Shown one piece after another: positions 58,515 through 60,877 of a DNA stretch of 64,000 nt. The number at the start of each line of letters is the position of its first letter. Position 1 is the stretch's first letter. The notes below the pieces were generated by a model that saw only the letters and a program-made list of their open reading frames with translations, was not told the origin of the DNA and ran no database searches. The position numbers and the translations under genes are program-made. Location of the stretch: the NCBI GenBank assembly GCA_965218555.1, contig OZ244625.1, positions 3,708,968 to 3,772,967 of the forward strand, given 5' to 3'. This DNA comes from Bryobacterales bacterium (lineage in GTDB: Bacteria > Acidobacteriota > Terriglobia > Bryobacterales > UBA6623).

Positions 58515-58675
58515 CCTGTCTTTCTCACCACGTGGGGAGTCGAAGTGCGTGAGAGGGCCGTCAGGACAAGGCGGGGCGCTTGGCGCGCGCAGGTGTACTT
58601 GACCCTACATCGATCGAGCACGGCGAGCAAGCGCAACGAAGTCATGGCGGTCGTATCGCGTGCTTCCCCCGTCAG
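58515..58675 (+). repeat. MITE-like repeat, copy D, left part (split by the IS110 element)
   Basis: Collinear with copy C up to ...CGTGCTTCCCCCGTCAG. The remaining 17 nt are at 60861-60877. Confidence 0.8.
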
Positions 58676-58683
58676 CGACTATG

Positions 58684-59622
58684 TCAAGCAGGAAGTGGGA
58701 TCCAGGGTTGATCGTCGCGGATCATGGCATTGAGCGCAACCAGCAGCTTACGAGCGACGGCAATCAGTGCGACCTGCTTCGGCTTACCGACTGCGAGCAG
58801 ACGGGCGCGGAAGGCGGCCAGCTGGGGGGCACAGCGCACCGCGGCGCGGGCCGCCAGGTACAACGCCTTGCGCACACGGGGACGGCCTCCGGCGATCCTG
58901 CGCCGGGCGCGGAATTGCCCGCTGTCACGGGCCAGCGGCGCCAGACCGACCAAGGCGGCGGCTTGTCTCCCGCTGAGTTGTCCCAACTCCGGCAGATCGG
59001 CCACCAAGGCCCAAGAGACCTTCGGCCCTATGCCCGGCTCGCTGGCAGGCGGCAGGCTGTTCGCGCAGTGCTCGTTGCACTTGCTGCTCCAGCAGCGCGA
59101 TCTGCTGGCTCAGAGAAGCGATCACCCGCTCCACGCTCGCCACAGCCGCAGCGCCTTGCAGTTGCTGCTGGGGCGGGTACGCTGCCGGGCTCGTAGGCCC
59201 ACCAGCGCATCGAGATGGTGCAACAACTCGCGCAACTCCCGCCGTTGCTGGCTCGGCAAGCGTGTCGCTGCGGGTCGCAGCCGCTCACCGAACAGCGCCA
59301 ACACCTGCGCATCGAGTCGATCAGTTTTCGCCAGTTGTCCCAACGAGCGAGCGAAGTCGCGCACGCGTTTGGGGTTCACCACGGCCACTCTCAACCCGGC
59401 GGCTTGCAGCGCCGCCCACACTGCTGTTTCCCATCCACCGCTGGCTTCCATGACCACCAACTGCGGCTCGAATCTCGCCAGCTCGGCTGCCAGCGCGAGG
59501 AGTTCTCTGACCCGCCGCGGCCGTCGGCCGCTGGGCTCTGCTTTGCGGTTGAGAACAAAAACATCAACGTACTGCTTGGAGACATCGATGCCAACAATGA
59601 TGGCAGTAGAATCAATAGACAC
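58684..59622 (-). pseudogene. IS110-family (DEDD) recombinase with two compensating frameshifts
   Basis: GTG at 59620-59622 follows AAGGAAGGGGG. Contains SIDSTAIIVGIDVSKQYVDV...VVMEASGGWE...VVNPKRVRDFARSLGQLAKTDRLDA. The middle part ([19 protein letters not shown]) is in another frame (ORF 58925-59143). The tail [35 protein letters not shown] returns to the first frame. Confidence 0.8.
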
Positions 59623-59626
59623 GGTC

Positions 59627-59760
59627 GGAACCCCCTTCCTTGTCATACGGGCTCTCGGGCCCCAGCGACTATGCGGGGTCTCCGGCCGAGGCACGCGGTG
59701 TCGCTACTGCTGACGGACGGGCTCGCAGCCCTTGGTGGTACGATCGAGCCGACACCGCGT
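59627..59760 (-). ncRNA. candidate IS110 bridge RNA core (target-binding loop 59693-59760, donor-binding loop 59627-59683)
   Basis: Two stem / internal-loop / hairpin modules sit in the non-coding left end. Loop sequences ACCACC and CCGTCAG match the insertion target. Loop sequences CATAGTCGCT and ACAAG match the element ends (details in findings). Confidence 0.55.
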
Positions 59761-59781
59761 CGGGAGGAGCCGCTAGCTAGC

Positions 59782-60812
59782 TGTGATCTTTCAATAGGTT
59801 GTTCACTCGGTCCCAACCGAGGAAACTGAGGGTACCAAGCACAAAGTTTCCCGGAAGGAGGACCAAGTGAACATCCATCAGAATGCCAAGTTGACGCCGC
59901 AGAGTCGAGCCGCTGTCGTCCGGCGGATTCTCGACCAGGGCCAGACCCCGAAGGCGGTGGCCAGCGCCTTCGGGGTCTGCGCACGCACGGTGCGCAAGTG
60001 GGTGGCCCGCTATCGGGCTGAGGGCGCGGACGGATTGCTCGACCGCAGTTCGCGTCCGCACCGCTCGCCCCGCAGCATACCTGCCACTCTCATCAGCCGC
60101 ATCACCGCCTTGCGCCGGCTGCGCTGGACCGGCGCCCAGATCGCCGCCACTGTTGGGGTGGCGCCCGCTACCGTCAGTCGAGTCCTCCGCCGCCAGGGGC
60201 TTGCTCGCCTTAGTGCCCTCGACCCGCCGCCGCCCGTCCGCCGCTACGAACATCCCCACCCGGGCGACCTGCTGCACCTTGATATCAAGAAACTCGGCCG
60301 CTTTCGCCGCGCCGGTCACCGCGTCACCGGGGACCGCCGCCACTCCAGCCCCGGCGCCGGCTGGGAATACCTTCATGTCTGCGTCGACGACCACTCCCGT
60401 CTCGCCTTCTCCCAGCTCTATCCCGACCAGACCGCCGCCACTGCCGCGGCCTTCCTCACCGCCGCCCTCGACTACTACCACCGCCTCGGCATCCGCGTCC
60501 GCCGCGTGCTCACTGACAACGGCGGGTGTTACCGTTCCAGGGCCTTCCATGCACGCTGTGCCCAACGCGGCCTACGCCATCGCTTCACCCGGCCCTTCAC
60601 CCCTCCTACCAACGGCAAAGCCGAACGCTTCATCCAGACCGCGCTACGTGAGTGGGCCTACGCCCACACCTATCACACCTCCACCCAGCGTGCCCAACAC
60701 CTCAGACACTGGCTCCACCGCTACAATTGGCACCGCCCACACGCTAGTCTTAAAGCCAACCCGCCCATCAGTCGAATCGGTCTGACCGGGGACAACCTGT
60801 TGAGGTTCCACA
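59782..60812 (+). mobile_element. IS481-family insertion sequence, copy 3 (1031 bp), nested in the IS110 left end
   Basis: Perfect 6-bp duplication GCTAGC (59776-59781 and 60813-60818). A few substitutions relative to copies 1 and 2. Confidence 0.9.
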
Positions 60813-60817
60813 GCTAG
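59867..60817 (+). CDS. IS481-family transposase
   Basis: 316 aa. Differs from copies 1 and 2 by P to A (RFRRAGHR) and in the last residue (S instead of N), which is encoded across the IS-flank junction. Confidence 0.9.
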   Translation: MNIHQNAKLTPQSRAAVVRRILDQGQTPKAVASAFGVCARTVRKWVARYRAEGADGLLDRSSRPHRSPRSIPATLISRITALRRLRWTGAQIAATVGVAPATVSRVLRRQGLARLSALDPPPPVRRYEHPHPGDLLHLDIKKLGRFRRAGHRVTGDRRHSSPGAGWEYLHVCVDDHSRLAFSQLYPDQTAATAAAFLTAALDYYHRLGIRVRRVLTDNGGCYRSRAFHARCAQRGLRHRFTRPFTPPTNGKAERFIQTALREWAYAHTYHTSTQRAQHLRHWLHRYNWHRPHASLKANPPISRIGLTGDNLLRFHS

Positions 60818-60860
60818 CGGCTCCTCACTCGCCTCTTGCCCCTACCTTGCCACATACAAG

Positions 60861-60877
60861 GTGGTGAGAGATGCAGG
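60861..60877 (+). repeat. MITE-like repeat, copy D, right terminal 17 nt
   Basis: GTGGTGAGAGATGCAGG corresponds to the right TIR of copy C with one mismatch. Confidence 0.7.

Follow-up and report, generated by a model that had tools for sequence, protein, structure and literature searches.

Elements of the IS110 family are established to target repeated extragenic palindromes (PMC11208160 and its references), as the original prediction for the DNA treated here noted. In the closest described system, IS621 of E. coli, the sites are read by a bridge RNA following a guide rule: two guides, the left target guide (LTG) and the left donor guide (LDG), read in the same sense as the top strand across the left half-site and the core, and two others, the right target guide (RTG) and the right donor guide (RDG), are the complement of the core together with the right half-site (PMC11208160). 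We describe a locus that seems to obey the same rule. The window, i.e., the whole stretch of 64,000 nucleotides (nt) that was analyzed, is C1:3708968-3772967 of a single-contig 5.78-Mb genome of a Bryobacterales bacterium, and all genome-wide counts below refer to this 5.78-Mb genome. Three nested mobile elements lie between a dehydrogenase-like gene and gltX, in which copy D of a MITE (miniature inverted-repeat transposable element) contains an IS110-family insert, and the insert in turn contains an element of the IS481 family. This triple nesting had been proposed from the letters alone; it is present in the sequence, with small corrections to the coordinates. Three successive insertions, with the IS110 element directed to its site by an RNA, very probably explain the structure.

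The outermost element is recognized by joining its two arms. Positions 58505-58675 joined to 60861-60890 give an unbroken alignment to the MITE consensus across the joint, with 164 of 176 positions identical; the flanking similarity to the repeat therefore survives a proper alignment, and copy D is, as predicted, collinear with the repeat to 58675 and resumes at 60861. Copy C, aligned to the same consensus, is identical at 165 of 177 positions. The insert between the arms of copy D (2185 bp) is reduced to 1148 bp when the IS481 element and one copy of its duplication are subtracted, and in this form it is 98.6% identical to three 1146-bp copies elsewhere in the genome. It has the same gene, with lesions, as an intact 1166-bp sister copy, whose protein matches PF01548 (77.3 bits), PF02371 (62.1 bits) and NF033542 (202.6 bits, cut-off 140), and these matches bear out the assignment of the insert to the IS110 family. 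The recombinase gene does end 8 nt from the right end (RE) of the element. Read on the recombinase strand, the final seven of these, ATAGTCG, form the left donor half-site (LD) and match the LDG of the putative bridge-RNA gene, and the right donor half-site (RD) TGTATGTGG adjoins the core in the left end (LE).

A census of the genome yielded seven copies of this IS110 element and two left-end remnants, and none of them lies at an unrelated sequence. All seven copies are located at ...CCGTCAG|GTGGTGAG... of a MITE in a constant relative orientation, and the right side of the filled site reads GTGGTGAGA, i.e., ...CCGTCAG|element|GTGGTGAGA.... In both remnants, the IS110 left end is joined to the MITE body by an internal deletion with the same junction as in the full copies, and thus nine of the nine left-end junctions fall on one MITE position. 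On the recombinase strand the target is TCACCAC|CT|GACGG, at the inner edge of the right terminal inverted repeat (TIR) of the MITE. AG on the plus strand, which is CT on the recombinase strand, is the sole sequence common to both junctions at all seven copies, without any TIRs of the element itself; the reported AG at both junctions, and its agreement with the IS621 core (PMC11208160), are confirmed in this way. The exact 14-mer site CGTCAGGTGGTGAG is uninterrupted at 36 places in the genome, among them the intact site of copy C that had been pointed out, and 131 MITE copies have no IS110 sequence and run on unbroken across it. The three identical 1146-bp copies sit in MITE copies that differ from one another at 6-15 of 60 flanking positions, and because identical elements occupy differing MITEs, the IS110 element moves without its flanks and picks its site anew. 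The same junctions, TCTCACCAC|CT|TGTATG... and ...ATAGTCG|CT|GACGG, were found for the relatives L001 and L002 (from a Bryobacterales metagenome-assembled genome, 88% amino-acid identity), i.e., in a second (sister) species.

On the recombinase strand, the left end and the GTG start are separated by 205 nt, for which the predicted fold comprises a 5′ hairpin, GAGGAGCCGCUAGCUAGCGGCUCCUC, and behind it two modules, each with an outer stem, an internal loop, and a small hairpin, which is the layout of a bridge RNA. The guides of this putative RNA were compared with the sequences on which the element sits. The LDG, AUAGUCGCU, agrees with the right-end ATAGTCG plus CT at 9 of 9 positions, the RTG, CCGUCAG, with CT plus GACGG at 7 of 7, and the RDG, ..ACAAG, with CT plus TGT of the left end over 5 contiguous positions; for the LTG, GUACCACCA, the agreement with TCACCAC plus CT is 6 of 9 (5 Watson-Crick and the first core base) plus one G-U wobble. 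The other MITE terminus has the same TCACCAC, followed by GT GGCGA, and is never occupied, which fits a requirement for the RTG match. Beyond this genome, L001 and L003 (Bryobacterales, 73% amino-acid identity) show compensatory changes in the 5′ hairpin and in the outer stem, and the LTG of L001, GCACCACCA, has one match more than that of the window copy. A covariance model built from the three sequences was run against 80 relatives from several phyla, and in about 40 of them it placed the RNA directly upstream of the recombinase. In the resulting alignment 89.5% of the cells are paired, sliding the partners lowers this to 46% or less, and changes on both sides occur in 49 of 54 pairs. To control the guide rule, homologous loop positions were compared with the flanks of the respective elements: the family of L010 (10 copies) gave 6/7 for the left target half-site (LT), 5/7 for the right target half-site (RT) and 9/9 for LD, L042 gave 7/7 for LT, and L005 gave 6/7 for RT.

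Several observations weigh against RNA guidance at this locus and should be read together. The LTG match is imperfect, i.e., LT is covered by 5/7 Watson-Crick pairs and one G-U, with A in place of U facing the second core base, and the RDG match consists of only 5 contiguous nt and a discontiguous stretch. In the relatives, AG always closes the RTG, and the LTG has U, A or C at its second core position, which makes the A in the window lineage less worrying. The alignment that gave the covariation was fitted to the model and is therefore biased toward the structure. The guides in the target-binding loop of L003 (GUGCUCCCA and CCGUGAG) mismatch its own flanks, so that this relative, examined as a further (third) case for the guide rule, was left out of the support; decay of this copy or insertion off target may be the reason. 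The outer left end of this element (L003:1305-2500) also differs. A promoter with sigma-70 spacing across the hypothetical RE-LE junction, looked for by eye, is not evident in this clade, where TTGACA of the RE lies 10 nt from TATGTG, versus a 17-nt spacer in relatives. Finally, an Rfam E-value search of 48000-62000 matched neither the MITE nor the IS110 left end to any family.

The repeat that serves as the target is present in four copies of ~180 bp in the window; genome-wide there are 224 BLAST hits, 127 copies near full length, 138 copies with a detectable site-proximal 60-mer, and ~210 TIR matches per strand. Its consensus is short (178 bp), non-coding and of high copy number, with perfect 18-bp TIRs, GCCTGCATTTCTCACCAC and GTGGTGAGAAATGCAGGC, and with conserved flanks, CTA|MITE|TAG, that are compatible with TA duplicated in CTAG; copy D itself is without such flanks. 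A 1242-bp IS5-family element, present in five copies, encodes a transposase with DDE_Tnp_1 and DUF772, and its outer 17-19 nt at both ends are the TIRs of the MITE. Because its ends are common to this transposase-encoding element, we consider the repeat a genuine MITE with an identifiable parent, and the IS5-family element is likely both parent and mobilizer of the family. Please note that minimal MITE derivatives also occur, namely eight mini-palindromes of 36 bp (GCCTGCATTTCTCACCACGTGGTGAGAAATGCAGGC) that consist of TIR-TIR alone and lie between CTAG-type flanks, e.g., at C1:1185818 and 3127993. We considered them as possible footprints of an enlarged IS110 excision and dropped this idea, as all of them are centered on CACGTGG and have CTAG-type flanks like ordinary minimal MITEs.

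Two other groups of IS110-family elements were seen in the same genome. One is an unrelated single-copy element of 1443 bp (C1:1251541-1252983), with its recombinase in three frames (frameshifted) and with GGTTCGCTCCC/GGGAGCGAACC as its subterminal inverted repeats; it interrupts another MITE copy in the middle, at consensus position 88/89. The other is a third IS110 family of 36% amino-acid identity with seven copies (C1: 1424701, 1581872, 3161530, 3165627, 4744723, 5526730 and 5645927) at a different site, with the junctions CACGGG|CT|TGTCTG... and ...ATACTG|CT|AG. Several of its left flanks resemble one another, suggesting that another repeat may serve as its landing pad.

Could the site be set mainly by the protein, or by the structure of a hairpin-forming TIR region, with the RNA complementarity being incidental or auxiliary? 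The target is located at the inner edge of a TIR from which a long hairpin could form, ISPpu10 is reported to need a structure-gated "dual-match" (bioRxiv 10.64898/2026.03.19.712850), and the LTG match of the present element is imperfect. However, the opposite TIR, which shares the left half and differs in core and right half, is never occupied, the RTG and LDG match in full, and in relatives these loop positions follow targets of other sequence, so we regard this explanation as improbable. A different possibility is that the MITE with the IS110 inside was moved as a unit by the IS5-family transposase acting on the intact MITE TIRs, and that such composite movement mainly accounts for the occupied loci. 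Both TIRs around the IS110 are indeed intact, a parent with the same TIRs exists in five copies, and identical 60-nt flanks are found for some occupied MITEs (the window copy and the copy at 4790971; the copies at 2848878 and 981038), with 4 of 21 occupied pairs differing by at most one mismatch versus 2% of the empty pairs. However, the "CCCCCGTCAG" subfamily is over-represented among the MITEs that are occupied (6/7 versus 22/59, p=0.036), and within this subfamily most of the excess of flank identity vanishes, leaving a weak remainder (p=0.027). The right TIRs of the pairs that share flanks are unequal at 3-4 of the 18 nt, the three identical IS110 copies sit in MITEs as divergent as described above, and relatives in other phyla follow the same guide-to-flank logic without this MITE. 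Composite movement as the main explanation is thus very improbable. Flank hitch-hiking, i.e., the IS110 carrying the MITE flank along, was tested and discarded, since the excess mostly reduces to the subfamily preference; sharing of flanks among occupied MITEs is treated here as a site or subfamily preference, and no co-mobilization is claimed.

It might also be argued that the IS110 element itself has long termini, namely the MITE-like arms, and that the short repeats are its deletion derivatives, so that independent elements would not be nested at all. The arms do flank every IS110 copy, and deletion derivatives with the IS110 left end alone exist. This is already contradicted by the data, and its probability is close to nil: the TIRs belong to the IS5-family element with its DDE_Tnp_1 transposase, the 131 MITE copies without IS110 read through the site, identical IS110 copies have divergent arms, and a second IS110-family element, unrelated to this one, interrupts a further MITE copy in its middle. 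RNA-guided insertion into a pre-existing MITE is the reading that we adopt in the following.

The window copy of the IS110 element is, judged from its sequence, dead, as had been stated: it would give no recombinase and has no intact RNA gene, owing to its lesions, a premature stop and the splitting of the RNA gene. The lesions were called relative to the intact 1166-bp copy by alignment together with the list of open reading frames (ORFs). Two compensating frameshifts had been placed at about 59150 and 59055. Both exist, a +2 insertion and a 20-bp deletion, and they sum to -18, which brings the 3′ part back into the original frame; the positions were off by about 20 nt, though, and since a stop lies in the shifted stretch, a full-length recombinase is not possible and a usable frame is not obtained. 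Compensation as a route to a functional protein was accordingly rejected. The two lesions differ in their distribution, because the +2 insertion is private to the window copy, whereas the 20-bp deletion, between GCCGGGCA direct repeats, is common to the window copy and the three identical 1146-bp copies; it was presumably inherited from a spreading defective lineage, with the private insertion following it. An intact recombinase is left in only one IS110 copy of the genome, the 1166-bp copy with its uninterrupted 318-codon frame. As the frameshifted derivative with an intact RNA gene reached at least three different MITE sites, mobilization in trans is suggested, and we tentatively propose, as a possibility somewhat short of an even chance, a master-and-passenger system in which the 20-bp-deleted copies spread after loss of the recombinase, served by the single intact copy through their intact bridge-RNA gene and ends. 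If this is true, the 1146-bp copies would be natural non-autonomous "bridge-RNA-only" elements.

The innermost element had been assigned to IS481 and placed in the IS110 left end. The assignment holds (its transposase matches NF033577 with 324.5 bits, cut-off 224, and also PF13011 and the rve domain), and the location can be refined to the hairpin apex at the 5′ side of the putative bridge-RNA gene. Elements of the IS481 family duplicate 6 bp of the form NCTAGN. There are 31 full-length copies in the genome, nearly all of them flanked by NCTAGN, and in 13 of them the 6-bp duplication is perfect. Where the IS481 sits, intact IS110 copies have the unbroken palindrome GGAGCCGCTAGCTAGCGGCTCC, and for this reason we conclude that it landed in two overlapping CTAGs at the hairpin apex. 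The truncated IS110 copy contains a different IS481-type element (91% identical) in the opposite orientation in the same palindrome, followed by a deletion; as a second, independent element occupies the same palindrome, the hit is recurrent and affects 2 of the 7 IS110 copies. The apex of the sister-species element, GGCAGCAGCC, is without CTAG. One of the left-end remnants (C1:3656391-3656503) carries a CTAG-free hairpin variant known from the sister species. The IS481 ORF runs through the right inverted repeat, and its TAG stop (window 60813-60817) comes from the duplicated CTAG target; given the NCTAGN flanks, such a target-supplied stop would hold for every IS481 copy. Two more full-length IS481 elements are found in the window (13505-14535 and 41956-42986), on the opposite strand, with CTAG-type flanks and 99.6-99.7% identity to the nested copy.

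Taken together, the following order of events may be envisaged. An IS5-derived MITE (178 bp, 18-bp TIRs, CTAG-type target) would have inserted between the alcohol-dehydrogenase-like gene and gltX. A bridge-RNA-type IS110 would then have integrated at TCACCAC|CT|GACGG, presumably from a circular intermediate, with the site chosen by the RNA encoded in its 205-nt left end; that the recombination crossed the CT core would account for CT at both junctions and the lack of any other duplication. The MITE acts as a dispersed landing pad, since it provides this site dozens of times. Lastly, the IS481 would have inserted into GCTAGCTAGC, the 5′-hairpin apex of the RNA, duplicating GCTAGC, and this insertion parts the outer 48 nt of the left end, along with any junction promoter, from both guide loops. 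The locus is a compact natural example of two target rules stacking elements on each other, an RNA-guided one (IS110) and the CTAG rule (IS481). It adds an acidobacterial IS110 clade whose guides are readable against nine filled and 36 empty exact (14-mer) natural sites, with a MITE rather than a repetitive extragenic palindrome (REP) as the landing pad. For annotation, the 2.4-kb "intergenic" block upstream of gltX consists of three dead or non-autonomous elements. Coordinates of all features are collected in Table 1.

Table 1. Features of the nested locus and related copies elsewhere (positions refer to the window unless marked as genome, C1)
Feature	Position	Strand	Remarks
MITE copy D, left arm	58514..58675	+	left 18-bp TIR GCCTGTCTTTCTCACCAC and body; aligns to consensus 1-160
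Target core AG at end of left arm	58674-58675	+	
MITE copy D, right 18-bp TIR	60861..60878	+	GTGGTGAGAGATGCAGGC; consensus alignment continues directly after 58675
IS110-family element, defective	58676..60860	-	2185 bp; 1148 bp minus IS481 and one duplication copy
IS110 right end, 8 nt	58676..58683	-	lies after stop codon TGA
IS110 recombinase pseudogene	58684..59622	-	GTG start 59620-59622; TGA stop 58684-58686
20-bp deletion junction	~59038/59039		between direct repeats
Premature stop	59122-59124		in shifted stretch
+2 insertion (GG on + strand)	run 59170-59173		only in window copy
Donor-binding loop module (predicted fold)	59622..59688	-	3′ stem overlaps recombinase start codon
RDG	59639-59643 (extended to 59648)	-	..ACAAG
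LDG	59664-59672	-	
Target-binding loop module (predicted fold)	59693..59760	-	11-bp outer stem
RTG	59710-59716	-	CCGUCAG
LTG	59733-59741	-	
5′ hairpin, 3′ half (on RNA)	59764..59781	-	includes GCTAGC 59776-59781
5′ hairpin, other half	60819-60826	-	
Outer 48 nt of IS110 left end	60813..60860	-	includes second GCTAGC, other hairpin half and RD
Repeated core AG	60859-60860	+	final two + strand nt of IS110
IS481-family element	59782..60812	+	1031 bp, TGTG...CACA; imperfect ~25-bp TIRs TGTGATCTTTCAATAGGTTGT / TGTGGAACCTCAACAGGTTGT
IS481 transposase ORF	59867-60817	+	
GCTAGC 6-bp duplication	59776-59781 and 60813-60818		
IS5-family parent copy in window	~51090-52311 (genome 3760058-3761278)		DDE_Tnp_1 and DUF772
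Dehydrogenase-like gene (alcohol-dehydrogenase-like)	57367-58392	-	one neighbor of nested block
gltX	61067-62506		other neighbor of nested block
IS110 copies, 1146 bp	genome 1838935-1840080, 2168850-2169995, 2848878-2850023		mutually identical
IS110 copy, 1166 bp	genome 4790971-4792136		only copy with uninterrupted frame
IS110 copy, 988 bp			carries 178-bp deletion
IS110 copy, truncated	genome 980074-981038		
IS110 left-end remnants	genome 3656391-3656503, 3529332-3529459		MITE-sized chimeras keeping only first 60 or 26 nt

Compared with IS621, the present element is alike in its two-domain recombinase (PF01548 and PF02371), in the CT core repeated at both junctions without TIRs, in a left-end RNA gene upstream of the recombinase with a 5′ hairpin and target-binding and donor-binding loops (predicted here), and in the use of one position of a dispersed extragenic repeat as the insertion point (PMC11208160). 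Unlike IS621, whose target is a REP and whose host is E. coli, it has a transposon-derived MITE (the inner TIR edge) as its target and resides in an acidobacterium (Bryobacterales); in addition, its RE is only 8 nt long, the second LTG core position is A, a junction promoter is not evident, and the RTG has 7 contiguous nt versus 4 in IS621. ISPpu9 and ISPpu10, IS110-family elements of Pseudomonas putida, likewise have multiple copies that all lie in one repeated intergenic palindromic sequence (PMC12288879; bioRxiv 10.64898/2026.03.19.712850). Their targets are of the REP type, whereas the target here is a MITE, and ISPpu10 is reported without a 5′ stem-loop, whereas the present element has one and it was hit by an IS481. 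Elements of the IS1111 group have their RNA gene downstream of the recombinase and possess subterminal inverted repeats, in contrast to the present element, which belongs to the IS110 group with the RNA gene upstream and has a high-copy MITE as its prey. A landing site within the inverted repeat of another transposon, as seen here, is described for elements of that group (Partridge & Hall 2003, as cited in PMC11208160). The inner element resembles the IS481 family (Bordetella pertussis) in its NF033577 transposase, its size of ~1 kb, its imperfect TIRs and its 6-bp NCTAGN duplication; there is no difference of substance, and its transposase ORF gets the TAG stop from the target CTAG. Overall, the mechanism follows the known rules of IS110 (bridge RNA, CT core, repeat targeting) and the NCTAGN rule of IS481, i.e., both families work here as already known.

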